A stretch of DNA of 64,000 bases, taken from an uncultured Candidatus Saccharibacteria bacterium. GTDB lineage: Bacteria; Patescibacteriota; Minisyncoccia; Phycocordibacterales; JBBTRF01. A program made the position numbers and the translations under genes. Below are positions 1,604 through 26,775 of the stretch, piece after piece. Positions within the stretch are counted from its first letter, which is position 1; each line of letters starts with the position of its first letter. The notes under the pieces were generated by a model. The model had not been told where the DNA came from and ran no database searches. It saw nothing but the letters and a program-made list of their open reading frames with translations. The stretch is from assembly GCA_964602975.1 (NCBI GenBank), contig CAZRTH010000002.1, forward strand, positions 7,668 through 71,667, written 5' to 3'.

Positions 1604-4402
1604 ATGAACACTGGTCCCGAAGCGTTACATACTCCTGAACAGGAATTGGCTTTTCTGCGCGAGCAAGTGTCGAAGAAGGAGCGCGAGCTGCGCGAGCGCG
1701 GAGAACCGCAGCCCCTGCAAGAGCGCGTGATGAAGGAGAAGTTGGTCGAATATCAGGGGCTTCCGACAGAGAAAGTGCTCACGAAAGAGCGTCAATTGGC
1801 TCCGCAAGCAGCGGAGGCGATCGTTCTAAACATTGCTCCGGAGGCACACGATGAAAAAATGGCCGAATTATTGGCAGTGCTTCAGAAGCATGGCTTGAAG
1901 AACGCGTTGGATATTGTTGAGCGACTCAAGAGCCCTCACATCGAGGATGACTTCCACCGTTTTATTATCCAATATCTCAAGGCCGGTCATCGAGTGGATC
2001 AAATGAATCCAAAAGAGGCGATCTCCAAGGCGCTGAAGATGACTTTGTATGAGATCTCGCTGCCTGAGCGAGACGGGCAAGCTCCGGAAAAGCCTCTCAA
2101 GGAGCTCGTGTCTTCCATGGAGCAGCTGTACTCCGGTATGTCTTCTGTTTCCGACGACGATCCTGAGTCGGCTCACTACTTCACTATCGAACTTGCGGTG
2201 TCGAATTTTAGTGACGAATTTGTTTTCTACATGGCTGTGCCGGACACCAAACGAGACCTTTTCGAGAAGCAGGTGCTCGCTATTTTTCATAATGCTCGGA
2301 TCACCGAGAAGCACGACGACTACAACATCTTTTCCGAAAAAGGCGTGGTTGCCGGCTCGGCGGTTGGCTTAATGAAAAAGGCGGCGCTGCCGATCAAAAT
2401 GTATGACCAATTCGACCATGACCCGCTCAACGTCATCCTGAACACTTTCTCGAAGATCAAGCGCGATGGGGAGGGGGCAGCACTGCAGATCGTCTGTAAG
2501 CCGACAAGGAGTGAACTATATTTAAAGCGATACAAGAAGGCAATTGAGCGTATTCAAAAAGGCGTGAAGCCGAGCGATGCGATCGACTTTCCAGACACTT
2601 TTTTTGAGCACTTCACGCATGTGTTCAAGTCTTCGAAGAATCCAAAGAAGCCGAGAAAAGACGAGCCGAAAGAGCCGGAGCATGTGGACGAGACAGCTAT
2701 CGAACAGATCCAGCGCAAGATCGATAGCCCTATTATGCTCGCGAATATTCGCTTGATGGTATCAGCGGATACTGATGTTGCAGCGGATCGGATATTGTCC
2801 GACATGGAATCGGCTTTCAATCAATTTCAAAACACTAATGGCAACCGTTTCGTGTTCGATCGGCTAAAGAAGGGGCAGTTGCAGAAATTCGTGGATCATT
2901 TTGCTTTCCGCCTGTACGACGAAGATATGCAGATGCCGCTGAGCTTGCGCGAGCTCACTACCGTGATGCATTTGCCGGCCACCGTTCTTCGTTCTGCGCC
3001 GCAACTCAAGATCTCAAAGGCGGGTACGGCTCCGGCTCCGCTCGATCTGCCACGGCAGGGTATTTTGCTCGGTATGAACGAATTCCGCAATATGAAAACG
3101 GAGATCCATATGACTCCCGAAGACCGCCTCCGCCATTTCTACGTGATCGGCCAGACCGGTACCGGAAAGACGAGTTTGTTGAAGAATATGATCGTGCAAG
3201 ATATTCAAAACGGCGACGGCGTCTGTTTCATCGACCCGCACGGCAGCGATATTCAGGACATTTTGTCGAAGGTTCCGAAGGAGCGCTACGAGGATGTCAT
3301 CTATTTCGACCCTGCGTACACCGAGCGGCCGATGGGGTTGAACATGCTCCAATACGATCCACGGTTCCCAGAGCAGAAGACCTTCGTGGTGAACGAAATG
3401 CTCTCTATTTTCAACAAACTTTTCGACATGAAGACGGCTGGTGGTCCGATGTTCGAGCAGTATTTCCGCAATGCGGTGCTTTTGACGATCGATGATCCTT
3501 CTTCTGGTGGTACGCTGTTGGATGTGTCGCGCGTGCTGTCGTCGAAGCTGTTCCGTGAGCAGAAATTGGCGAAGTGTACCAATCCGGTGGTGATCCAATT
3601 CTGGAAGGAGGTAGCAGAGAAGGCAGGTGGGGAATCGTCTTTGGCGAATATTGTGCCGTATGTAGTGAGCAAATTTGATACGTTCTTGAGCAACGACATC
3701 ATGCGGCCAGTGATCGCACAGGAGAAGTCCACTTTCAATTTCCGCGAGATTATGGATACGAAGAAGATCTTGTTGGTGAATTTGTCGAAGGGACGTCTCG
3801 GCGATATCAATGCCAATTTGATCGGTCTTATTTTGGTTGGCAAGATTTTGATGGCGGCGTTGTCGCGTGCCGATTCGCTCAATGGTGCGAGCGCGCTCGG
3901 CGGGGGAGCGGCGGGCATTGCTGGCAGTGCCGCAGTGTCAAAAATGCCACCGTTCTATCTGTACATCGACGAATTTCAGAATGTCACCACAGATTCGATC
4001 TCGGTCATTTTGTCGGAAGCGAGAAAGTACAAGCTCAGTTTGAATATCGCACACCAATTCATCGCCCAGCTGCAAGAGGGGATCAAAAACTCCGTGTTCG
4101 GCAACGTTGGTTCGATCGCCGCTTTCCGTGTGGGTGCCGAGGATGCGGAATATTTAGAGAAGCAGTTTGCGCCGGTGTTTACCGCCAAGGACAGTATGAA
4201 TGTCGACAATTACAACGCATACGTGAAGCTGTTGGCGGCCGGCCGGCCGGTGAAGCCGTTCAGCATGCACCTCGTGCCGCCAACGGCCGGCCGGCCGGAC
4301 CAAGTCGAGAACCTCAAGCAATTGTCGTATATGAAATTCGGCAGGAACAAAGCGGACGTCGAAGCGGAGATCTTGCTCAAGTATCAGAAAAAGAACGCCT
4401 AA
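1604..4402 (+). CDS. TraD/VirD4/TrwB-like (type IV coupling protein-like) P-loop ATPase with long N-terminal extension
   Basis: C-terminal half has Walker A 'VIGQTGTGKTSLLKNM' followed by 'CFIDPHGS' (matches TrwB/TraD 'GATGTGKS...IVDPNG' pattern) and Walker B-like 'LYIDEFQN' plus 'NIAHQF'; no N-terminal TM segment seen. Confidence 0.6.
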   Translation: MNTGPEALHTPEQELAFLREQVSKKERELRERGEPQPLQERVMKEKLVEYQGLPTEKVLTKERQLAPQAAEAIVLNIAPEAHDEKMAELLAVLQKHGLKNALDIVERLKSPHIEDDFHRFIIQYLKAGHRVDQMNPKEAISKALKMTLYEISLPERDGQAPEKPLKELVSSMEQLYSGMSSVSDDDPESAHYFTIELAVSNFSDEFVFYMAVPDTKRDLFEKQVLAIFHNARITEKHDDYNIFSEKGVVAGSAVGLMKKAALPIKMYDQFDHDPLNVILNTFSKIKRDGEGAALQIVCKPTRSELYLKRYKKAIERIQKGVKPSDAIDFPDTFFEHFTHVFKSSKNPKKPRKDEPKEPEHVDETAIEQIQRKIDSPIMLANIRLMVSADTDVAADRILSDMESAFNQFQNTNGNRFVFDRLKKGQLQKFVDHFAFRLYDEDMQMPLSLRELTTVMHLPATVLRSAPQLKISKAGTAPAPLDLPRQGILLGMNEFRNMKTEIHMTPEDRLRHFYVIGQTGTGKTSLLKNMIVQDIQNGDGVCFIDPHGSDIQDILSKVPKERYEDVIYFDPAYTERPMGLNMLQYDPRFPEQKTFVVNEMLSIFNKLFDMKTAGGPMFEQYFRNAVLLTIDDPSSGGTLLDVSRVLSSKLFREQKLAKCTNPVVIQFWKEVAEKAGGESSLANIVPYVVSKFDTFLSNDIMRPVIAQEKSTFNFREIMDTKKILLVNLSKGRLGDINANLIGLILVGKILMAALSRADSLNGASALGGGAAGIAGSAAVSKMPPFYLYIDEFQNVTTDSISVILSEARKYKLSLNIAHQFIAQLQEGIKNSVFGNVGSIAAFRVGAEDAEYLEKQFAPVFTAKDSMNVDNYNAYVKLLAAGRPVKPFSMHLVPPTAGRPDQVENLKQLSYMKFGRNKADVEAEILLKYQKKNA

Positions 4403-10857: not shown

Positions 10858-12003
10858 ATGAAACACGAGAGTGAAGCGACAGCATCTGGAGGTCAAGGAG
10901 AGGCGATAGTTAAAGACGCAGATCTCCCTGAATCGGAATTCGAGCTGGGTTTTGAAGAGATCGCTCGGTCAAAGACAAAAGTGACTGAGGGGAGAAACAA
11001 GGTGCCTGCTGGGGAAGTTTTCCTTGTTAGGCCATGGGAGGACTACACCCTCGTTGCTTTGAAAGATAAGCCCTCTCTGGCCATATATGACGAGCACGGA
11101 GCCATGATCGAGAATTTCAAGGAAAACGGGCTTCTGCATAAAGGTGATACCAACTGGGCTAGCCTTATAAGAAGTTGTGGAGGAGGATCATATCTTCTGG
11201 ATAGTCTTGGAGCGCAGGGTTCACGAGACACATTAGCTTTTGATCAACTGGAGACTTTCCTGAAATGGCCTCTGCGTGAATACAACATTCGATTCAGTAC
11301 AAGTCTTTCGGACATACAGAGGGCCCTCGGTAGTGACCAATCTGTTGAAAAAGGATGGAAGTATCAGTCATTTGATAACGGGAAATATCTCCTCTGTATT
11401 GATCCGGAAACTAAAATCTTCTTCGGATACATAACAGAAAATGACAGAGGCATTCGGCTTGCTCCGAAAGACTGGAAGAAAATAGACTTCACCGCCAAGA
11501 GTAATACGTTACCTAAGGATTTTGTAGCGCATATCGAAAAAACGCTACAGCAAACCGATGACTTCAAAGAACTTAACGCGAAGTATGGCGCGATCATTAC
11601 CGATATTGGCATCAATATCATCGATAGTGCAAATCCTTCTGGCGCCCCCGTCTTTAAAGACCTCGTCCCATCTGTTGCTTCAAATATCACAGTCGACCCG
11701 AGCAACCCTGATACGGTGTATTACTGCCAGAGCGGCAATCCAAGGGAGATCACTCGGCTCGATATGACTGGCGATCCGACCAAGTGGCAGACGCGGTCGG
11801 CGGCTATTCCGAAGCAATACGGTGCGATCAAAAACCTCCAACTTGACCCAACCGGCTCATATTTCCTTCTCTATACTCAAACCGCGCTGGTGATGCTTGC
11901 AAAAGAGACACTCGAGGAAATCAAAGAAGTTCCCGGTCTCAAAGAGGCCAATTTTGACTCCCAAGGCCGCGTCCGAGCCGTGGCAAGGACGGTTATTTGG
12001 TGA
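10858..12003 (+). CDS. hypothetical protein, first gene of MoxR-vWA-TGase/Ubl block
   Basis: 381-aa ORF, stop overlaps the TTG/GTG start of next gene; no recognisable domain. Confidence 0.45.
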   Translation: MKHESEATASGGQGEAIVKDADLPESEFELGFEEIARSKTKVTEGRNKVPAGEVFLVRPWEDYTLVALKDKPSLAIYDEHGAMIENFKENGLLHKGDTNWASLIRSCGGGSYLLDSLGAQGSRDTLAFDQLETFLKWPLREYNIRFSTSLSDIQRALGSDQSVEKGWKYQSFDNGKYLLCIDPETKIFFGYITENDRGIRLAPKDWKKIDFTAKSNTLPKDFVAHIEKTLQQTDDFKELNAKYGAIITDIGINIIDSANPSGAPVFKDLVPSVASNITVDPSNPDTVYYCQSGNPREITRLDMTGDPTKWQTRSAAIPKQYGAIKNLQLDPTGSYFLLYTQTALVMLAKETLEEIKEVPGLKEANFDSQGRVRAVARTVIW

Positions 12004-14732
12004 CATATGCCGTAGACACAAGCGGCTTGGCTCAAGTGATGGAGAGAAAGAGGATTGCACGCCTAACACAAGGAGTAAATGCAACGGACCTTTTCAGGAT
12101 CGATGATCTGAAAAAGAAGGGAGGAAAAACTGCGGTTGAAAAAGAGAAGGATCTCATTCCGGTAAAAGAAAAAATGGAGCGCGATGTTGCGCCTGCTTTG
12201 GAATCTCTGGATACGCTCGAGCACGCGGCGAATTTCAGAAAGCAGCTGGAAGAATTGCGCCGACAGCTCCGTCAGCAGGGTCTCGCCAACGATGAAGTCG
12301 TTTTTGTAACAGAAGGGATCGAGGCTTCAGTCAAAGAGAAAGAGAAGCAATTTGTCTCAAAAGAAACGGTGCCGATGCTTGAGTCAATTGAAAAAGGCTT
12401 GGCAGCTGGGTTGTCTCTATCGACCGCTGTCATCCTTCGAGCGGATCTGGATCGGCTGAAGGCCACCGAGCTGTTAATGGACGACACTGTCCGAGGTAGG
12501 TACCATGCGTTGGTCAATACATTCAACTTGGCATATCAGGAATTATTCCAGCGAGAGGGAAGCAAGATCATCGAAGAGGTTCAGGGCTTGCTGAAAGGGA
12601 TACGAACACAGCTGGATGCGATCACCAACAAAAATGGTTTTGATGATTGGATGGAGTTTCGACTACCACAATATAAGAGCCGGCTTGGAGAGATGCTTCG
12701 CGACTGTCCGATCACAGCGGACGATGCATACAGGGCGATATCCGGAGCTCGTACTGAGTTGCAGACCATTGCGGCTGAATATCAGAAAAAGTTTGAGGAA
12801 GAATACGCGAAGGTTCGGGAGAAAGCTGCGGGACGAGTAGATGCGGTCGTTGTCGATCTGGAGGGGGATATTGCTGCTATTGTCAAAAGGCTTCAAGACA
12901 AAAATTTCAAGGATCGAGCTGCCGCCGAACAGTATCTTTCAAGTAGCGAAGCGAGGAGGGTTTTGGAGAGTGAGATTCAAGCTCTCGCTTCAGATCAGCC
13001 CGATATTGCCGAGGAGCTCAAGCGAGCACTCAGAGTCCAGATCTCAAATAGCCTGTCGGCCATTGAACGTGGCGCGCAACTCAATATCGCAGAGACCGGT
13101 CAGCAGATGGTACTTTTTGGCAAGACCACTTTCCCTAAGTGGGAGGCAAAGGTGAAGGAGAAGAGGAAGAGGGCTGTGAGCCTCACCTTCGAGACCGATG
13201 AGAGAAGCCATGGTCCCGGAGTGAAGCCTGATCAGATCCAAGGTGACGTCGTGTTTGCGGTGACAGACCAGAAAGGAGAAAAGAACAAGGTCGGTCCATA
13301 TGAAGGGTGGACAGATGAGCATGAGTGGCGCCTCGGTCTTCATGCTCTACGAGGTCAGAGCACCCCGCCTTCATATATGACCGCGGAGGAGTTTCGAAAT
13401 GTGAAAAAACAATACAGCGCTTGGGAAAGCGGAACGCTCAAGAAGGAGTATGAGACTCGACGCCAAGAGCTTGCTACTATCTACGCCACTCGCGAGAAGG
13501 TGGGAAAGCGTAGTGCTGATAAAGAAACCCTTTGGAAGACAATGTATCAAGCAAAGCTGAGGGACCATGCTGAGTTTCTTGCCAAGAATCACATCAGTCT
13601 GTTTCGGCGCGCGGATGCCGTAAGAGAGAGTGACGAGGTGGATACGAACGGCAAGGGATTCGTGCCAAGCTGGCAAAGCCACTGGGTTGTCGATCCTGAT
13701 ACGGAATATAACCTCGAACGAATGGCAGAAACATTCAAGATGCAGCTCGACCTGAGGGAAGGTGTACTCAATCTCGATGGTCATGCCGGTACAGGAAAGG
13801 ACGTTCTCATGAAAATGTTCAGTAATCGAACAAATCGACCATACTTCAGCACCGATTGTACGAAGTGGACCACCGAGTACGAACTTTCTGAAGACGTTGT
13901 GCTTGAGGCAAAGGACGGAGCAACCCAGACGATCAAGGTACCGAGCGCTGTTTTGAACGGCATCCAGACCCCAGGAGCGCTGGTGTATTTCAATGAGGTG
14001 AACGGCATGCCTGAGCAAGCGCAGATCTTCCTGCATGCCCTATGGGACGAAAAGCGATCTTTGACCCTCAAGACCAGCTCTGGAAAGGTGGTGAAGGCTC
14101 ATCCGACCGTACTTTTTGCAAGCTCAAAGAACCCTGGGTATCCTGGTACCTTCGACCCACAGTTTGCGACCAAGAGTCGTATGGTATCGATGGAGATCGG
14201 CTATCCTTCACTGCACACTATCGCCAAGCCGGAGGACAAGAATCCAAACAAGCCATTTAATTCATCCGAGGCTCTGCGTATCGCCCGCGAAGTCAGTTCG
14301 TTGTCAGACATGACCTTTGAACCGAACATGGACAGGAACGAATTTGTACAAATGTGGGATAGCCACGTGAATGGCATCAAAAATGGTGCTCCAAAGCCAA
14401 GCGCTGTCCAGGAGTTCGATATCAAGACCATTCTCGCGTTAGTACAGTTTGGCACCAAGCTTCGCGAAAACTTCAAATTGAACTTTGAGAAGAGCCGAGA
14501 TGCTCGCAACGCTCTCCCTGTCCATCAGCCACTGACCTCTCGCGAGTTGCGCAGGGCTGCATATGGACTCTCCAAGACTCCTGTTGATGAAAAGATCAAG
14601 GGCAATCCCGATACCACAGCTCGTGAGCTTCTGGAGCGTTTCTTCCTGAGCCACATCGATAAGACCGAGGATCGCGAGAAGATCAAAACGGCGATGGCGA
14701 CCTGGCGTTCTCAAAAGAGGGTAGCCGCTTAA
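11997..14732 (+). CDS. MoxR/AAA_5-family AAA+ ATPase with long N-terminal coiled-coil region
   Basis: C-terminal half: 'LNLDGHAGTGKDVLMK' (Walker A-like, Lys present but Asp in place of Thr/Ser), 'ALVYFNEVNGMPEQAQIFLHALWDEKRSLTL' (matches MoxR 'DEINRA.P..Q.ALL.A..E'), 'TVLFASSKNP' (ATQNP-like), 'FDPQFATKSRM', 'IGYPS'; N-terminal ~550 aa charged/coiled; start is TTG at 11997 or GTG at 12000 overlapping upstream stop. Confidence 0.6.
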   Translation: MVTYAVDTSGLAQVMERKRIARLTQGVNATDLFRIDDLKKKGGKTAVEKEKDLIPVKEKMERDVAPALESLDTLEHAANFRKQLEELRRQLRQQGLANDEVVFVTEGIEASVKEKEKQFVSKETVPMLESIEKGLAAGLSLSTAVILRADLDRLKATELLMDDTVRGRYHALVNTFNLAYQELFQREGSKIIEEVQGLLKGIRTQLDAITNKNGFDDWMEFRLPQYKSRLGEMLRDCPITADDAYRAISGARTELQTIAAEYQKKFEEEYAKVREKAAGRVDAVVVDLEGDIAAIVKRLQDKNFKDRAAAEQYLSSSEARRVLESEIQALASDQPDIAEELKRALRVQISNSLSAIERGAQLNIAETGQQMVLFGKTTFPKWEAKVKEKRKRAVSLTFETDERSHGPGVKPDQIQGDVVFAVTDQKGEKNKVGPYEGWTDEHEWRLGLHALRGQSTPPSYMTAEEFRNVKKQYSAWESGTLKKEYETRRQELATIYATREKVGKRSADKETLWKTMYQAKLRDHAEFLAKNHISLFRRADAVRESDEVDTNGKGFVPSWQSHWVVDPDTEYNLERMAETFKMQLDLREGVLNLDGHAGTGKDVLMKMFSNRTNRPYFSTDCTKWTTEYELSEDVVLEAKDGATQTIKVPSAVLNGIQTPGALVYFNEVNGMPEQAQIFLHALWDEKRSLTLKTSSGKVVKAHPTVLFASSKNPGYPGTFDPQFATKSRMVSMEIGYPSLHTIAKPEDKNPNKPFNSSEALRIAREVSSLSDMTFEPNMDRNEFVQMWDSHVNGIKNGAPKPSAVQEFDIKTILALVQFGTKLRENFKLNFEKSRDARNALPVHQPLTSRELRRAAYGLSKTPVDEKIKGNPDTTARELLERFFLSHIDKTEDREKIKTAMATWRSQKRVAA

Positions 14733-14741
14733 CACCTGTCT

Positions 14742-17700
14742 ATGAAATCACCGGAGGATCATTCTGAAAGCGTCCCGAGATCGAACAAGAAACATGTTCG
14801 AGAAATGGTCTTTCTCGCCGAACAGGCAAAGGAAGGCGCATTGAAAGTGCTACCAGGAAAGGCTTGGGCACAGCATTTTCCTGTTCCTGCCGAAGAACGC
14901 AGAGAGATCCTTCAGGGAGTTCTCGATGGAAAAGTGAAGCCGCAAGACGCAGAATCAAAGGTCACTCCAGACGCCTTGGTCTATGACGCCGCTGATCTCG
15001 ACAGGGAGGGTTTGGATGGAGTGAGCTCACGAATCTTTGATGAATCGGCGACGGTACAGTACTACGACTACCCGAGATTTACCAAGTTTGTCTCGGAGAT
15101 GAAGGGTACGAAGATCTCTGTCGGGGATTGCGAAAAGCTCTACGGAGCGATCACAAAAGCGAGGACTCAGAAAAAGCTCAGAGATGCTTTTGGAACTACA
15201 GGGCAAGGGCAGCTTGATGGTGTGTTGGTACGTGACGCGAAGGCGATCGTCAGGACCATCGATACCCTTCCTCCGACAGAAAAAGTCTTGCAAGCTCTCA
15301 AGTTGGATTGGCTCTGTAGAGATAGGGGAGCGATCGGGACGCTTGAGCGAGATGAGGTAGTGTCGAAACTTTCCGGTAGCGAAAGAGAGTTATTCAAGAA
15401 GCTCTCCACCGGGTACCGTCAGTACGTCGATCAGGGAGATGAGGCAGGGTACAAGGAATTGTTGGAAGGTATACGTGACAATCACTCTCTTGTTGAAGAG
15501 AAGAAAGAGGCATCTGATGCTCCGAGTGACAGCATGCAGAAGCTTGAGGAAGAGATCGAAGAGTACAAGAAGGATACCGGAAATCCCGGCACTCCAAACG
15601 ACCCAGCTATCCCTCCCGAAGACGCGGACGAGTATCATACGCCGGAAGGAGGGTCACCGGAACAGCCAGAACAAAGCGGTCCTTCCCAAGAGCAACAGGA
15701 ACAAAGACCGATTTTTGAGATCGAGCCACCTCTCGGCGGCTATTATGCTGGTGGGCGAAAAAGCTACTATGATCGCACGAGAAAGACTTGGAGCAAGAAG
15801 AAGCAGTTGAGCGAGTACGCCGGAGTACTTTCAGCATCAGGACGTCACACGCTTTCTGGCAAGACCGACAGAGGAGTGAAATCACTCGCTATTCCGAATA
15901 GTTATGCGTTGGACGCGGTATCTGTGAAATACACCGGCTCCAAACCGAGACTGCACCGTGACCAGAATGGCTGTTTCTATATCGAGACAGATGGACCGTC
16001 GACTTTCTCGGTTGAATTTGCCAAGGAAGACAAGCTGTTCACCGGACCAGTGGTGGCAGAGGATACAGAAAAACTGTACGCAGGAGCCCTTTCCACTGAA
16101 AGTGAAACTTTGTTGCAGGCATTGCAAGGTAATGCAATGAATAAGGCAGAACAGGTGCGTCAGCATATTCTAGCGAATCACTTTTATCCCGGCGGCGGAG
16201 ACTTGGGTGCGGCTCAGGCTGTCCAAGCGAAGCTCCGCCATGAATCAACTCCGGATGCTTATATTCAAAATATCGATAAGGCAGAATATCTGGAATGTTA
16301 CTCCTCGAACACTCTTTTTGTGGCGATGATCCGACAGGCTGGCATACCGGCTCGTCTCGTGATTGGTCACAAGGTAGAGGGTGCTCGCGATGGAAAATCA
16401 GCCATAACAGAGTCTACCGGACATGCATGGTCTGAAGTCTGGGACGGTGGCAAGTGGGTGAGATTTGACGCAACGCCCGCTCCGAAGCCAGAGGACAAGA
16501 AAAAAGACAATAAAGAAAAGGAGGATGATGCGGAAAAGGAAAGCGCTCCTGAGGCGAAAGACAATGGAAAGGAGGCTCCGCAGAAGGAGCAGGAAAAAGG
16601 AGGGACTCCGTCTGATGAGGAAAATGGCGAGTCGAAAGAGCAGGGGGAAGCTAGTGATTCTGATGTCCAGGAAGGCGAAAATAGTGTCCAACAATCAAAA
16701 GAAAAGCTCGAAAAGGACGCCGCTGAAAAAGAAAAGCTCGAAAAGAAACTCGAAAGCGAGAATTCATTCGAAGATCTAGAAAAAATAAAAGAGGAAATAC
16801 AACAGGCCGACCTTTTGGATGATATGCAGAAGGAGCTTGATGAAAAAGTCGAAGCAAAAGAAGAGCAAATGAAGGAATCCATCAAGGATGAACTTGATAA
16901 GATGGTGAAGGACGGTTTCTTGGATGAGGAAAAGAGAAACGAGCTGGAACAGAAGCTTCTTGAGGAAGATGCTGCTGAATTGGATCGTTTGAGAGAGCAG
17001 CTTGAACAGGAAAACTCACTCTACAACGAATATGAGAATATCCGTGATGAAGTGATGCCGCTGGTGGATAAGTGGTTTGAATTTTTTGTAGAGCGCTTGC
17101 CTCGAGAGCAGAATGTCGATGTGGATGAGGATTCTTTGACCCGCCAGGGCGTGTTCAATCGAAGGTCGGTGAACAAGGCGCGAAATTTGTTGTTTGGATC
17201 GATCAAGAATCCCCGTATCATCAAGTCATCTGTAAAGCCATTGTTCATGAGCTCGATCCTTGTCGATGTGAGCGGTTCGATGGCGGGAGAGAAGCTGCAG
17301 AATGCCCGGAAGCTCCTAGTCTTCTATTCTGAATTGTTCACAAAGATCAGCGAAGAATTCGGCTACATCCGATTTTCCATAAATACATTCTCTGATAGAG
17401 TGAACGAGATCAAAGCTTTCGATCAGGATTATTCCGCGACCCAGAGTTACCTTTTCCCTGACAATTCACGCTCGACGGTGAAATTCCGTCTCATGAACAA
17501 TGTTACCGCGCTAGGCGGCACGAACATGCTTGATTCAGTGAAGAAGGCGGCAGCTGATCTTAATCGAGAGACGCACGATTTTCCTGATTATGCATCGGCA
17601 TTCTATTTTGTTGGCGATGGAGAGGATACCTGTGGCAATTCTGGCAATGTGAGTAGCTTTTTGCAGACAAATGATGCCGAGAGGGGATTTGGCGATCACA

Positions 17701-17867
17701 TGAGATCAGCGATCATGCTGGGAACCGAGAGCCAGAAGGCGATTTTGGCGAATATTTTTGGTGAGGAGCATACTACCGTAGCTCCAGATCTCGATTCTCT
17801 GATCGAGGAGAGTATGCTTCGTTTCAACGATGATATTGAAGCGTATATGAACATGAAGACGGGGTAG
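14742..17867 (+). CDS. transglutaminase-like cysteine protease domain + acidic low-complexity/coiled-coil linker + C-terminal von Willebrand factor A (vWA) domain
   Basis: TGase core 'AEYLECYSSNTLFVAMIRQAGIPARLVIGH' (Cys ~16296-16298), 'GHAWSEVW...GKWVRFDATP' (His, Asp); vWA MIDAS 'ILVDVSGSMAG' (~17265), 'ALGGTNM', 'FYFVGDGEDT'; ~170 aa of Lys/Glu/Asp-rich low complexity between. Confidence 0.7.
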   Translation: MKSPEDHSESVPRSNKKHVREMVFLAEQAKEGALKVLPGKAWAQHFPVPAEERREILQGVLDGKVKPQDAESKVTPDALVYDAADLDREGLDGVSSRIFDESATVQYYDYPRFTKFVSEMKGTKISVGDCEKLYGAITKARTQKKLRDAFGTTGQGQLDGVLVRDAKAIVRTIDTLPPTEKVLQALKLDWLCRDRGAIGTLERDEVVSKLSGSERELFKKLSTGYRQYVDQGDEAGYKELLEGIRDNHSLVEEKKEASDAPSDSMQKLEEEIEEYKKDTGNPGTPNDPAIPPEDADEYHTPEGGSPEQPEQSGPSQEQQEQRPIFEIEPPLGGYYAGGRKSYYDRTRKTWSKKKQLSEYAGVLSASGRHTLSGKTDRGVKSLAIPNSYALDAVSVKYTGSKPRLHRDQNGCFYIETDGPSTFSVEFAKEDKLFTGPVVAEDTEKLYAGALSTESETLLQALQGNAMNKAEQVRQHILANHFYPGGGDLGAAQAVQAKLRHESTPDAYIQNIDKAEYLECYSSNTLFVAMIRQAGIPARLVIGHKVEGARDGKSAITESTGHAWSEVWDGGKWVRFDATPAPKPEDKKKDNKEKEDDAEKESAPEAKDNGKEAPQKEQEKGGTPSDEENGESKEQGEASDSDVQEGENSVQQSKEKLEKDAAEKEKLEKKLESENSFEDLEKIKEEIQQADLLDDMQKELDEKVEAKEEQMKESIKDELDKMVKDGFLDEEKRNELEQKLLEEDAAELDRLREQLEQENSLYNEYENIRDEVMPLVDKWFEFFVERLPREQNVDVDEDSLTRQGVFNRRSVNKARNLLFGSIKNPRIIKSSVKPLFMSSILVDVSGSMAGEKLQNARKLLVFYSELFTKISEEFGYIRFSINTFSDRVNEIKAFDQDYSATQSYLFPDNSRSTVKFRLMNNVTALGGTNMLDSVKKAAADLNRETHDFPDYASAFYFVGDGEDTCGNSGNVSSFLQTNDAERGFGDHMRSAIMLGTESQKAILANIFGEEHTTVAPDLDSLIEESMLRFNDDIEAYMNMKTG

Positions 17868-17995: not shown

Positions 17996-19489
17996 ATGTT
18001 CGCTATTCTCACGCGGATCCGGAGCTGGTTTGAGCGTTTGCTCGGCCAAGACCTCGAGCCGCTGAAAGAAGGTTTTCTTTCGTGCGACTCAGCTCAGAAA
18101 CAGGGGTTGGTGATGACGAAGTTCGAGCTCGAGGTAAGGCCTCGCCGTATCATGGGTGTTCTGCCTGTGTTCGGAGTTCGAAAAGTCGGTTCGGTCTCAT
18201 TTTTCGACGCGGTCAAAGCCCCCATTCGGTCTTCTCTCGCTTCGTTGAGTCATGAGTTGCGCCAAGTCCCTCGACGTGTCCATGATGCGGCCGAAAAAGG
18301 CCTCAAAATTGGAACCGAAAAAGCTGTTGATCAGGCAAAGGCAAAATTGAATGTCGAAACACAAAAGCTCCTTCAGAAATTTGACGAATCGCACCTTTCC
18401 GGGCTCATCAAGTCCGACAGGAATGTCTTTCGTCAAAAGCTTCTCGAGGCCCTCAGTGATCAGGCATCGCAAGTATTTGCCACTGCCACAAAGAAGCATC
18501 TGGCCGAACTCGTCCTGCGCATCCGACAAGAAACATCAGTTTCCGATTCATCGAGTGTCTCCGATGACAATGTCGCTTCATTGCCACTGCCGACCGGCAC
18601 ACGTTTCGTGTTCAGGAAAGGCAAGATGACCACGTTTGTCATCGAGCAACCGCCTCAAAAGCGCACGCTGAAAATCATGAATGAAGGTGGCGATAGATCG
18701 GAGATGGTTCAGTTGGCGCTGCCTTACGTCGTGTTCTTCATCGTCCTGCGCGGTCGCAGATCCGACAAGGCATACGTGCTCTTTCGGAAAGCTCCGCTGC
18801 GAAGCGTGAGAGACGAATTACTCTGCCCAGCTCTTCCCAACATCTTCGGAGACTTCAGCGTTTGTTTTGCTCCATCGGCAGCTAGGGACACCCTGGCAGA
18901 GATGGCGGAAGAATCGATCGCTAGCTTCTGGGGCGGCAGGTTTATCAAAACCGAAGTCGTCACCGAGGCTCACAGGAGGACCCCTATCGAAGATTGGGCT
19001 GAAGGGTCGAGAAAAGACTCCTTGTTTGGCATATCACATCCGTGGATGTCGGCCAAACAGAGTGTTGCAAGCATGATGGAGAAGATCAGCGCTGAATTCG
19101 TTGCTGATACCATTGCTGGCCAGAAAAAAGAAAAAGGCGGCAAGGAGATCGCTTCCGCGCTCGATGCGGCTGTCACCGCGCTTGCGACTAAGATCGAGAA
19201 CGAAATGAAAGAGACCTGCTTCAAGCTCGTTCCTTCATGGAACCTCGATCCGACGGTCCTTGCTCAAACAAGTGCAGGGTTCAAGCAGTCTGTCGCTGAG
19301 GTATGCACTGTAATTAAGGCGCAGCTTGGCGAAAAGATCGAAGGAACCTTGTCGAATGAGGCCTTGGAAGGAGCTCTTGAAGCAGCAATCCAACAAACGA
19401 TCGCCTCGATGAATGCGGACATGGACAAGCCGATGGCGGCCGCTCGCGAAGCGTTCTCCGCGATTCTTAAAGAAAAGGAGGCAAAATGA
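17996..19489 (+). CDS. candidate E2/UBC-like ubiquitin-conjugating-enzyme homolog (hypothetical)
   Basis: Motif 'LLCPALPNIFGDFSVCFAP' (Cys codon 18863-18865) resembles UBC active-site 'HPNI...G.IC(L)' spacing; preceded by predicted beta-strand stretch; gene stop overlaps JAB gene start (ATGA); RBS GGAGG upstream. Confidence 0.4.
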   Translation: MFAILTRIRSWFERLLGQDLEPLKEGFLSCDSAQKQGLVMTKFELEVRPRRIMGVLPVFGVRKVGSVSFFDAVKAPIRSSLASLSHELRQVPRRVHDAAEKGLKIGTEKAVDQAKAKLNVETQKLLQKFDESHLSGLIKSDRNVFRQKLLEALSDQASQVFATATKKHLAELVLRIRQETSVSDSSSVSDDNVASLPLPTGTRFVFRKGKMTTFVIEQPPQKRTLKIMNEGGDRSEMVQLALPYVVFFIVLRGRRSDKAYVLFRKAPLRSVRDELLCPALPNIFGDFSVCFAPSAARDTLAEMAEESIASFWGGRFIKTEVVTEAHRRTPIEDWAEGSRKDSLFGISHPWMSAKQSVASMMEKISAEFVADTIAGQKKEKGGKEIASALDAAVTALATKIENEMKETCFKLVPSWNLDPTVLAQTSAGFKQSVAEVCTVIKAQLGEKIEGTLSNEALEGALEAAIQQTIASMNADMDKPMAAAREAFSAILKEKEAK

Positions 19490-20166
19490 CCCCGATTCAT
19501 CTCAAAAAGACAGACGGTGCGAAGCAGTCTCCTGAGACGACCCATTACATTGCGGCCAGAAATGGTCTCTTCCTTCAAAAGAAGATGTGGTGGGTGGATG
19601 CTACGGTGCCTGTGGCTGAGGCGAGCAAGCTCAGGGTCCAACACCCTTCAGCGAGATTGCTTCTGCCTAAGCTTCCCGTAGAGATCTTGGCCCAAGCTCT
19701 GAAACTTGCGAAAGCAGTATACGACGTTTCCAAAAGCGAAGTATGTCTGCTCTTGCACTATGATGAGAAAACGGGCTATCAACTCACCGTTCCAGTGCAA
19801 CTAGTCACGCCCTTAAGCGTCGACTACAACGCTTCACAACGGGTGCCAGGAGCGCTCTGTGTAGGAACTATCCACTCGCACGGTAAGCTGCACGCGTTTC
19901 ATTCCGCCACCGACCATGCTGATGAAGAGACTGCAGATGGCGTCCATGTAACCCTCGGGAGCTTGGATGTGTATCCGCGATTCTCTTTGTCGGCAGAGAT
20001 GGCGATCAACGGGACGAGATTCCCCGTTGAGACTCAGTGGTTCGAAGGACTGGTTCTCGAACAAGAACGCATCTATCGTATCGATTGGCCGGCCATTGAT
20101 TCGTGGGAGGTTCCGCGGAAATGGCTCGATGTCGTCGAGCACAGGAAAGGAACACCATGGCCATAA
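19486..20166 (+). CDS. JAB/MPN (JAMM) metallopeptidase, deubiquitinase-like
   Basis: Canonical JAMM motif 'E...HSHGKLHAFHSATD' (HxH-x7-S-xx-D) with upstream Glu ('KSEVCLL'). Confidence 0.7.
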   Translation: MTPIHLKKTDGAKQSPETTHYIAARNGLFLQKKMWWVDATVPVAEASKLRVQHPSARLLLPKLPVEILAQALKLAKAVYDVSKSEVCLLLHYDEKTGYQLTVPVQLVTPLSVDYNASQRVPGALCVGTIHSHGKLHAFHSATDHADEETADGVHVTLGSLDVYPRFSLSAEMAINGTRFPVETQWFEGLVLEQERIYRIDWPAIDSWEVPRKWLDVVEHRKGTPWP

Positions 20167-20867
20167 AAGTGATCGGTCTCGGCGGTATCGGTAGTCAGTT
20201 GATATCGCCTCTGTGCCGCTACCTTGATTCGCAGAAGGACGGCAGCATTCAGATCGTCGTCATCGACGGCGACGCATACGAAGCCAGAAATGCCGACCGC
20301 CAGGAATTCTTGGATGTCGGCAATAAGGCTGAAATTACGGCTGCTCGGATGAGGCGGGATTTACCCGGTCTTCTCATCGAGGCGAAGCCTGAATACGTGA
20401 CGGAGGAGAACGTGTTCTTCATGATCAACAACGGCGATATCGTGTTCCTGGGGGTAGACAACCATGCTACTCGGAAACTCGTGTCCGACCGCTGTCGAGA
20501 ATTGGAGGACGTGGCGCTCATCTCCGGCGGGAATGAGCTGATCGACGGCAACGTCCAGATCTATCTCCGCATTGGTGGCAAGGAACTATCGGCCCCGATC
20601 ACGTATCTCCACCCGGAGATCGAACATCCGCGAGATCGGAATCCCGCGGAAATGAGTTGCGAAGAGCTCGCTTCGAGTGGAGTTCCACAGCTGATCTTTA
20701 CCAACTTGACCGCGGCCGTCCTTATGCTCTCAGCATTTCGAATGGTTGGCGCGGTCTTGGCAGGAAAGGGAAAGTTGATATACTCGGAGCAGTTCTTCGA
20801 TGTAGAAACCGGTAACGTCCTGACCTTCTTGCGCAAGCCAGAAGGTCATCACAGAAAGGCAACATGA
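20157..20867 (+). CDS. E1-like (ThiF/MoeB/ubiquitin-activating) adenylyltransferase
   Basis: Rossmann 'VIGLGGIGSQL' and 'VVIDGDAYEARNADRQ' (ThiF 'D.D.V..SNLNRQ' motif); ATG at 20157 with AAAGGA RBS, overlaps JAB gene end by 10 nt. Confidence 0.7.
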   Translation: MAIKVIGLGGIGSQLISPLCRYLDSQKDGSIQIVVIDGDAYEARNADRQEFLDVGNKAEITAARMRRDLPGLLIEAKPEYVTEENVFFMINNGDIVFLGVDNHATRKLVSDRCRELEDVALISGGNELIDGNVQIYLRIGGKELSAPITYLHPEIEHPRDRNPAEMSCEELASSGVPQLIFTNLTAAVLMLSAFRMVGAVLAGKGKLIYSEQFFDVETGNVLTFLRKPEGHHRKAT

Positions 20868-21139
20868 CAGAAACGACGACAACACCCGATGGCAGCGCGC
20901 AGCCTCCAGTGCTGGACGCGCCCAGTGTGCAGATCCAGTGTGGCGCCAACAGCCAGAGCATCACGCTCGGCGATGGCGAAGTCCTGACAGTGGGGAATGT
21001 GCGCGAGCGCCTCGGCGACGTGCTCAACCTCGCCCCCACTATGCTCGCCGTTATCGGTGACGAAACAGTGGACGACGACCGCGCCCTCCGGCCCGGAGAA
21101 ACGCTCCAGTTCATCAAGCAGTCCGGGACGAAGGGCTAA
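20864..21139 (+). CDS. ubiquitin-like beta-grasp protein (ThiS/MoaD-like), C-terminal Gly
   Basis: 91 aa; 'VQIQCGANSQSITLGDGEVLTVGNVRERLGDVL...MLAVIGDETVDDDRALRPGETLQFIKQSGTKG*' matches ThiS/MoaD pattern ending in Gly; start overlaps E1 stop (ATGA). Confidence 0.5.
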   Translation: MTETTTTPDGSAQPPVLDAPSVQIQCGANSQSITLGDGEVLTVGNVRERLGDVLNLAPTMLAVIGDETVDDDRALRPGETLQFIKQSGTKG

Positions 21140-21191
21140 CTTATCGGCCACCGCACTCGGCTTCCGTGATGCTGATTCGAAAACGCAACTC

Positions 21192-21221
21192 GGCCTCCTT
21201 TCGGGGAGGTCGGGTTTTTTG
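21192..21221 (+). terminator. rho-independent terminator after Ubl gene
   Basis: 'GGCCTCC-TTTC-GGGGAGGTC' hairpin followed by 'GGGTTTTTTGTTTGGG'. Confidence 0.5.
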
Positions 21222-26699: not shown

Positions 26700-26775
26700 G
26701 CGCCCGTAGCTCAGTTGGTAGAGCAGGTGTCTTATACACACCTGGCCGGGGGTTCGAATCCCTCCGGGCGCACCA
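26700..26775 (+). tRNA. tRNA-Ile (anticodon UAU, decodes AUA), CCA encoded
   Basis: Cloverleaf: acceptor GCGCCCG/CGGGCGC, D-arm GCTC-AGTTGGTA-GAGC, anticodon stem GGTGT/ACACC with loop C-T-TAT-A-C, T-arm GGGGG-TTCGAAT-CCCTC, ACCA end. Confidence 0.7.

Follow-up and report, generated by a model that had tools for sequence, protein, structure and literature searches.

The conjugation of ubiquitin-like proteins (Ubls) in bacteria is an active field, to which CBASS Cap2, Bil and Bub belong. Bil and Bub operons, which encode an activating enzyme (E1), a conjugating enzyme (E2) and a Ubl, do conjugate proteins (PMC10557695; PMC11601596). A further class, the 6d operon, was predicted bioinformatically in 2006 and appears untested in the literature searched. 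Its genes encode a Ubl, an E1, a JAB peptidase bearing a JAB-N domain and an E2-like protein that contains a Cys and lacks the classical His (Iyer et al., 2006; PMC1779556). The 6d type was later modelled as the PRTRC system, with Prok-E2_D as the model of its E2-like protein. The present analysis concerns a four-gene cassette for an E2-like protein, a JAB peptidase, an E1 and a Ubl, located at positions 17996–21139 of a stretch of 64,000 nucleotides (the window) from an uncultured Candidatus Saccharibacteria bacterium (contig CAZRTH010000002.1). All coordinates refer to the window, and all features located in it lie on the forward (+) strand.

The first gene of the cassette encodes a protein of 497 amino acids (aa), which is probably the E2-like conjugating enzyme of this self-contained system. 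Judging from profile comparisons, the core of the protein (aa ~195–352, probably together with a helix at aa 132–178) is related to the Prok-E2_D family, from which it has diverged very far. A divergent UBC-like E2 was also what a previous inspection of the DNA alone (the sequence-only reading) had proposed for this gene. That proposal is now supported by the conservation of the putative catalytic Cys290, by profile homology to both Prok-E2_D and UBC enzymes, and by synteny.

The gene occupies positions 17996–19489, stop codon included, in the list of open reading frames (ORFs). It starts with ATG and is preceded by a GGAGGA ribosome-binding site ~8 nucleotides 5' of the start codon. Its putative active-site motif, LPNIFGDFSVCF, is encoded at 18833–18868, with the codon for Asn282 at 18839–18841 and that for Cys290 at 18863–18865; translation reproduced the ORF, the motif and the Cys codon exactly as first reported. 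The Cys follows the Asn at i+8, the same spacing as in the HPNIxxxGxIC motif of UBC enzymes and in the FNVWSSGNIC stretch of PRTRC protein B, which bears out the likeness to the UBC flap pointed out before. The position of the His in HPN is taken by Leu280, and Leu is found there in 83% of the family. Thus, the His that marks classical E2/UBC enzymes is missing. This His is dispensable in several bacterial E2-like families, and its replacement, which the sequence-only reading had likened to such families, matches the description of the 6d E2-like proteins (PMC1779556).

A word-indexed search of 5.8 billion proteins yielded 17 homologues, all of ~495 aa and with E-values down to 1e-209; those with named sources are all from metagenome-assembled genomes of Patescibacteria/Paceibacterota. 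Asn282 and Cys290 are invariant in 15 aligned homologues with identities down to 25%, and the best-conserved block of the alignment spans aa ~195–352. Four alignments were used from here on, i.e., a full-length alignment (A1), a narrow core profile (A2), a broad core alignment (A3) and an alignment of 23 PRTRC_B proteins (A4). When A2 was compared with 1.84 billion cluster representatives, 1620 proteins were found at E ≤ 1e-3, 749 of them at E ≤ 1e-10; these relatives are representatives at 50% identity and range from 180 to 1290 aa. Among the representatives with a full domain, Cys290 is kept in 152 out of 152 and Asn282 in 93%, and P199, E217, P220, P243, W312, F316 and W334 are nearly invariant. 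The sequence-only reading would have been refuted by a lack of conservation of the Cys combined with the lack of a UBC-like fold; the former does not apply, as the Cys is invariant in every homologue examined. No conserved His was found among the 152 full-domain representatives, which argues against a Cys-His peptidase. Another Cys, Cys277, is nearly invariant in a narrow clade and is not conserved across the wider family. A tblastn search of phage genomes with the full protein gave no matches, and a profile search of genome contigs with A2 recovered just two Patescibacteria loci.

The link to known E2-like proteins comes from profile comparisons. When ten diverse members of the core family were scanned whole, three exceeded the Pfam gathering threshold (25 bits) for PF14460 (Prok-E2_D), i.e., P0041 with 29.8, P0052 with 30.1 and P0119 with 27.2 bits, and others scored more weakly. 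Similarly, 20 out of 39 sampled core domains matched Prok-E2_D at E ≤ 0.01, the best at 1.3e-8. Within the group of 15 close homologues, a Pfam scan gave a single weak match to this family (E 0.076). PRTRC protein B of the Pelobacter plasmid pPRO1 is itself a Prok-E2_D protein (6.5e-60), and its active-site stretch, PYFNVWSSGNICTG, shows the same Asn-x7-Cys spacing as the 497-aa protein. Alignment of A3 with A4 in hhalign gave a probability of 77.8% and an E-value of 1.9e-5 over 103 columns. It places C290 on C158 and N282 on Asn150 of PRTRC_B, and it pairs EQxPQxRT with WWxPPxxR, LAFPYVVF with VPHPGLVF, LPNI..VCxG with YFNV..ICxG, and FWxSxF with FFxSxF. Detection of this relationship required the PRTRC_B profile: with a single PRTRC_B sequence, A2 gave nothing and A3 gave an E-value of 0.015, which is merely suggestive.

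The core was also compared with seven canonical UBC sequences, each of which was verified by Pfam as UQ_con (1e-42 to 1e-55). The hhalign score was 30.0 (P 3.6e-4) over 81 columns, and N282 falls on the Asn of HPN and C290 on the catalytic Cys (LPN..C versus HPN..C). As controls, 60 column shuffles scored 12.5 ± 2.7 (maximum 26.1), 60 block shuffles 14.3 ± 2.3 (maximum 22.0) and the reversed alignment 16.7 (a single value); thus, none of the 120 shuffles attained the observed score. The UBC signal is weak yet specific, and it is in the expected register.

The full-length AlphaFold2 model has a mean predicted local distance difference test (pLDDT) score of 74 and a predicted template modelling (pTM) score of 0.40, and a model of the core only reaches 80 and 0.77, respectively. 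In the modelled order, a helix and a small β-unit (aa 1–68) are followed by a very long helix (aa 69–179), a disordered linker and a β-meander with strands at aa 202–208, 211–218, 221–228, 235–252 and 255–264 and a kink at the invariant Pro243. N282 and C290 lie on a long loop after this meander, helices follow from aa 300, and the C-terminal region (aa 357–496) is helical. The β-rich segment that had been noticed ahead of the motif is thus found in the models as strands between aa 202 and 264. The succession of helix, β-meander, Asn/Cys loop and helices, as modelled, is congruent with an E2. When the core model was compared with predicted viral structures, four uncharacterised phage proteins were matched (E 4e-6 to 4e-4, template modelling (TM) scores 0.52–0.71). 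Hence, the predicted fold recurs in independent models. The entries matched in BFVD (A0A6J5MFC0, A0A6J5P0Y8, A0A7R7G2H5, A0A6J5NU73 and A0A172Q0C7; TM up to 0.71) come from uncultured Caudovirales and from Acinetobacter phage vB_AbaM_ME3, and all of them are uncharacterised.

Several observations weigh against an E2-like enzyme. Direct scans of the 497-aa protein gave nothing meaningful in Pfam, NCBIfam, PADLOC or PHROG; for PF14460 in particular, there was no match even at E ≤ 1, and the gathering threshold was not reached. The link to canonical UBC enzymes is weak, with an hhalign probability of 37%, and PDB sequence profile searches with A3 and A4 gave no relatives, so that no structure of a Prok-E2_D protein was detectable by sequence. 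The AlphaFold models were built on 15 sequences only, the mean pLDDT varied from 54 to 80 across five core models, and the modelled meander has 5–6 strands versus the canonical four. The fold comparison that the sequence-only reading had suggested, carried out with Foldseek against the PDB, returned no UBC structure or other E2 and no significant match for the core or the full-length model; the noise consisted of PB2 cap-binding domains and rotavirus VP8* with TM < 0.2. In 6d E2-like proteins, a His C-terminal to the Cys is "absolutely conserved", whereas it is not conserved here: H187 of PRTRC_B (FxHPN) is invariant in A4, and the core family has FWxSxFNxD without a conserved His. Finally, literature searches on PRTRC and Prok-E2 turned up no mechanistic study and no biochemical test.

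The genes downstream of the E2-like gene are those expected of a conjugation system and agree with the earlier description of JAB, E1 and Ubl genes, as judged from Pfam, NCBIfam and a C-terminal Gly. They encode the JAB peptidase, a ThiF-type E1 and a protein of 91 aa, and the stop and start codons of successive genes overlap. The JAB/JAMM metallopeptidase (19486–20166; 226 aa), the start of which overlaps the stop of the E2-like gene by four nucleotides, has an N-terminal JAB-N domain (DUF2016). It matches Prok-JAB (5.8e-6) and DUF2016 (3.8e-4) in Pfam and PRTRC_A (1.6e-12) in NCBIfam. Its JAMM motif HSHx7HSxTD at aa 130–143 (19873–19914) and the Glu in SEVCLLLH at aa 84–91 are conserved in five orthologues.

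The ThiF/MoeB-type E1 matches Pfam ThiF (2e-17) and PRTRC_ThiF (2.4e-12) and also scores on the MoeB model. The ORF finder starts it at the GTG at 20103. However, all four orthologues begin at a Met equivalent to the ATG at 20157, which is preceded by the RBS-like (ribosome-binding-site-like) sequence AGGAAAGGA. The GTG start is therefore probably an over-extension, and the E1 probably consists of 236 aa encoded at 20157–20867, overlapping the stop of the JAB gene by ten nucleotides. Its GLGGIGS nucleotide loop (aa 7–13), its DN motif and a Cys in EMSCEELA (aa 165–172; 20649–20672) are conserved in orthologues. We take this Cys to occupy the position of the crossover-loop Cys of MoeB and ThiF.

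The candidate Ubl (20864–21139; 91 aa) has a variable N-terminal tail, a conserved core of ~65 aa according to the alignment of orthologues, and the C-terminus SGTKG. The G-x-K-G end with the terminal Gly is kept in five orthologues, which give weak β-grasp matches (ThiS 0.015, TGS 0.007), and the tail resembles the GAGTKA end of PRTRC protein C (Prok_Ub). A hairpin resembling an intrinsic terminator (21187–21216; a 13-bp stem and a T-run) closes the four-gene cassette. With their catalytic motifs intact at the sequence level, the partner genes look functional.

By analogy with known Ubl pathways, a dimer of the ThiF-type E1 would adenylate the C-terminal Gly91 of the Ubl and may also keep the Ubl bound to the Cys that is conserved in the crossover loop (EMSCEE). 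The Ubl would then be passed as a thioester to Cys290, in the LPN...C loop after the β-meander, and be moved from there onto a lysine of a target protein. An E3 is not encoded in the cassette; for target recognition, oligomerisation or docking of the E1, the flanking helical regions of the E2-like protein (aa 1–190 and 353–497) are the foremost candidates. The JAB peptidase would take the Ubl off again; maturation would not call for it, since the Ubl as encoded ends in Gly.

These flanking regions were estimated at ~250 and ~200 aa in the sequence-only reading; actually, they measure ~195 aa at the N-terminus and ~145 aa at the C-terminus of the core (18578–19051), which was delimited by the profiles and the AlphaFold core model. 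The N-terminal region of aa 1–131 (17996–18388) comprises a helix, a three-stranded β-unit (aa 27–68) and the start of the very long helix. Run on 161 proteins, a hidden Markov model (HMM) of A1 showed that it is conserved solely within the ~490-aa subfamily, the short and ~700-aa forms not being covered there. Next comes the conserved helix of aa 132–178 (18389–18529), with the motif LIKxDRNxFRQKLLEELG, in which N143, R146 and L149 are invariant in the homologue alignment. This helix may correspond to the N-terminal one of the UBC fold, and it is followed by a variable, disordered linker (aa 179–195; pLDDT < 50 at 175–195 in the full-length AlphaFold model). The C-terminal region (aa 353–497; 19052–19486), helical in the models, carries the motif MKExCFxLVPxW at aa 404–415 (KExCFxLVPxW, aa 405–415, at 19208–19240). 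In the ~490-aa subfamily, E406 of this motif is invariant, and C408, F409 and W415 are nearly so. It is proposed that this region is an arm that binds partners or targets. According to the same HMM, the whole ~490-aa architecture (hmm 1–497) is common to ~40 representatives, the ~700-aa forms match from the long helix through the core into the C-terminal helical region, up to about hmm 473, and the forms of 180–250 aa consist of the core alone.

The ~495-aa protein, a JAB protein (224–270 aa), a ThiF protein (227–251 aa) and a small protein (69–92 aa) follow each other in this order in five otherwise different neighbourhoods, and a 732-aa distant form is also followed by a JAB gene. In another locus (L010, 6001–8098), tandem E2-like paralogues of 355 and 354 aa precede genes for JAB, ThiF and a 106-aa protein. 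The second of these paralogues aligns with aa 132–352 of the 497-aa protein (E 2.5e-17, hhalign with A1), which shows that the conserved module includes the helix ahead of the core. Distant relatives also occur in Bacillus jumbo phages, where a 255-aa E2-like protein, labelled hypothetical, adjoins a PRTRC_A-like JAB and a ThiF protein. Compared with A3, the phage protein aligns over 133 columns (E 1.2e-4) with its Cys in register. The triad was found in Bacillus phage vB_BauM_KLEB27-3 (L014, gp194–gp197) and also in phages Edson and vB_BceM_WH1; phage-borne Ubl-conjugation triads of this type seem not to have been described previously. The 559-aa gp197 of the Bacillus phage showed no similarity to the N-terminal arm.

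In the syntenic locus L006, which encodes a 66%-identical homologue, the cassette is preceded by genes for a TraG/HerA-like ATPase, NDK, a sortase, an NYN protein, a β-CASP protein and an S11 peptidase and followed by a GNAT gene. Two diverged Patescibacteria thus retain the cassette at a syntenic position on the chromosome. In the window, three tightly packed genes (10858–17867) lie directly 5' of the cassette. They encode a 381-aa protein that was not assigned, a 911-aa protein with a CobS/MoxR/GvpN-like AAA+ region (PHROG 249, 2e-13; GvpN, 6.7e-4) and a protein of 1041 aa, which has a C-terminal vWA domain in addition to a transglutaminase core (5e-13) and a long acidic coiled region. None of the three genes occurs in any other context of the cassette, and the comparison with L006 suggests that they were inserted 3' of the S11 peptidase gene, directly before the cassette. 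For these reasons, the AAA+ and transglutaminase-vWA genes were considered as members of the system and rejected. Just 3' of the cassette, an ATPase of the AAA_15/AAA_21/SMC_N type, which is found in many defence systems, is encoded in L003 (13236–15599), L008 (13258–15513) and L006 (15060–17104); it is absent from the window. Further away, the window encodes a 932-aa protein (1604–4402) with weak matches to HerA/TraG/TrwB coupling-protein-like ATPases. Its syntenic counterpart in L006 is a DUF8128 protein, and L003 and L008 lie near gene clusters for type IV secretion system pilins. ARAGORN detected a tRNA-Ile gene with anticodon TAT (UAU) at 26700–26775. Such a tRNA is uncommon in bacteria, where AUA is usually read by a lysidine-modified CAU tRNA.

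The downstream ATPases in three contexts, the relatives on phages and plasmids, and the analogy with Bil, CBASS and Bub together suggest a conflict-related role. Against this hint stands the syntenic retention of the cassette on the chromosomes of two diverged Patescibacteria. A role in conflict or stress response, i.e., of the defence type as for Bil and CBASS, is the most likely one, although weakly supported.

The failure of Foldseek to find a UBC structure for either model could also mean that the core is not an E2 but a distinct fold, whose conserved Cys has another function beside the E1/Ubl pair. For example, the Cys might take up sulfur from a thiocarboxylate of the Ubl in a relay of the ThiS/MoaD type, or the protein might be the preferred substrate of the system. 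The E1 would suit such a role, as it is a short, single-domain ThiF/MoeB-type protein like the E1s of sulfur transfer, and the placing of Prok-E2_D in the E2 superfamily by Pfam is itself sequence inference alone. Nevertheless, this explanation is unlikely. The UBC alignment puts the Asn and the Cys on the catalytic residues of E2s and beats all shuffles, a JAB with JAB-N and a Ubl with a G-x-K-G end are hallmarks of conjugation-type 6d operons, and genes for a rhodanese, a cysteine desulfurase or cofactor biosynthesis are absent in and beside the cassette in the five contexts. The HPN His is absent, as is the downstream His of the 6d type, and these absences are what would be seen if the protein were a catalytically dead E2 fold, comparable to RWD or UEV proteins, that merely binds the Ubl, an inactivity that was initially inferred for the E2-like proteins of the 6e operons as well. 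This is highly improbable, since inactive E2 folds are without the Cys that is universal among the full-domain representatives here, where the Asn is mostly kept as well; moreover, the "inactive" E2s of 6e/Bub proved to be active through a Ser (PMC11601596).

The helical arms raise a different question. Two thirds of the protein are helical, including a predicted helix of ~110 residues, the arms are conserved throughout the ~490-aa subfamily and in part among the ~700-aa forms, no E3 is encoded, and the E2s of Bil have been proposed to recognise targets directly (PMC11601596). It might be concluded that the protein is a combined E2/E3-like scaffold, with arms that build an oligomer or filament and a Cys290 that serves for auto-modification or regulation only. 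We regard this as quite improbable. The core-only forms of 180–250 aa keep the invariant Cys and the JAB/E1 neighbours, which implies that, ancestrally, the functional unit was the catalytic core. Moreover, with a pTM of just 0.40 for the full-length model, the modelled arrangement of the arms is not reliable. An E2-like enzyme of the cassette, with Cys290 as the catalytic residue, thus remains the preferred reading. A further step, which is tentative and rather doubtful, would be to consider the ~490-aa "armed" proteins as a distinct, unannotated class of bacterial conjugating enzymes, in which the arms form their own E3-like module for substrate recognition or assembly. If so, the ultra-small Patescibacteria and some phages would possess complete, E3-free Ubl tagging, which is undescribed for this group in the literature searched.

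The relatives form a large family of 1620 representatives that is mostly missed by current domain libraries, and the 497-aa version is unannotated. Patescibacteria, despite their reduced genomes, stably maintain a compact version of four genes, in which the E2 appears to have gained long helical arms that are conserved and take the place of an E3. As the cassette is small, its catalytic motifs are intact and its Ubl would need no processing, it lends itself to testing 6d-type conjugation biochemically for the first time. It is also suited to asking how E2s pick their targets without E3s.

How the cassette relates to described systems can now be summarized; it is not a Bil, Bub or CBASS Cap2 system. 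With the eukaryotic UBC enzymes (UQ_con, PF00179), the 497-aa protein shares the Asn-x7-Cys arrangement, the meander before it, the helices after it and a weak profile match above the controls. It differs by a Leu in place of the HPN His, by more strands in the meander, by its large helical extensions and by the lack of a UBC match in Foldseek. Cap2 of type II CBASS is an E1-E2 fusion encoded beside a CD-NTase, whereas the cassette contains no such fusion. The PADLOC E1-E2 models did not match the 497-aa protein and gave weak matches (E ≥ 3.7e-4) on the adenylation domain of the ThiF gene product. Like the cassette, Bub (6E/DUF6527) has a Ubl/E1/E2 pathway with a highly divergent E2 that was missed by annotation. 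However, the E2 of Bub uses a Ser and forms an oxyester, the associated protease is the DUF6527 serine protease, and the Ubl and E2 or the E2 and E1 are fused (PMC11601596). In contrast, the cassette has an invariant Cys, a JAB peptidase and separate genes, and no DUF6527 was found in its proteins with Pfam.

The Bil systems of types I and II (BilA, Ubl; BilB, E2; BilC, JAB; BilD, E1) resemble the cassette in combining the four activities in one operon without an E3, in having a Cys-based E2 without canonical HPN and in using a JAB deconjugase; conjugation by Bil has been shown experimentally (PMC10557695; PMC11601596). Here, the difference lies in the E1, which in BilD is a multidomain protein (IAD-AAD-CYS; PMC11601596) and in the cassette a single ThiF domain of 236 aa, and in the E2, since direct sequence similarity to the 497-aa protein is not detectable and no E2 model of PADLOC matches it.

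The 6d/PRTRC type is the closest known system to the cassette. The 497-aa protein is twice as long as PRTRC_B, which lacks its N-terminal (~195 aa) and C-terminal (~145 aa) helical regions. In the five contexts, the cassette is without ParB, PRTRC protein E and α-hel2/PRTRC_F; the possibility that the helical extensions represent a fused α-hel2/PRTRC_F was rejected (hhalign with A1, probability 0.5%). Furthermore, the Ubl gene is the last one here and the first one there, and the cassette resides at a syntenic chromosomal site in Patescibacteria, whereas PRTRC systems reside on a plasmid or an integrative and conjugative element. What both have in common is a JAB with JAB-N/DUF2016, a short ThiF-type E1, a small Ubl with a G-T-K-[GA] tail and, in the E2-like protein, a conserved Asn with a conserved Cys eight positions further on; both lie in an xxN....G.IC loop from which the HPN His is absent, and the Cys is followed by the motif F[FW]xSxF.

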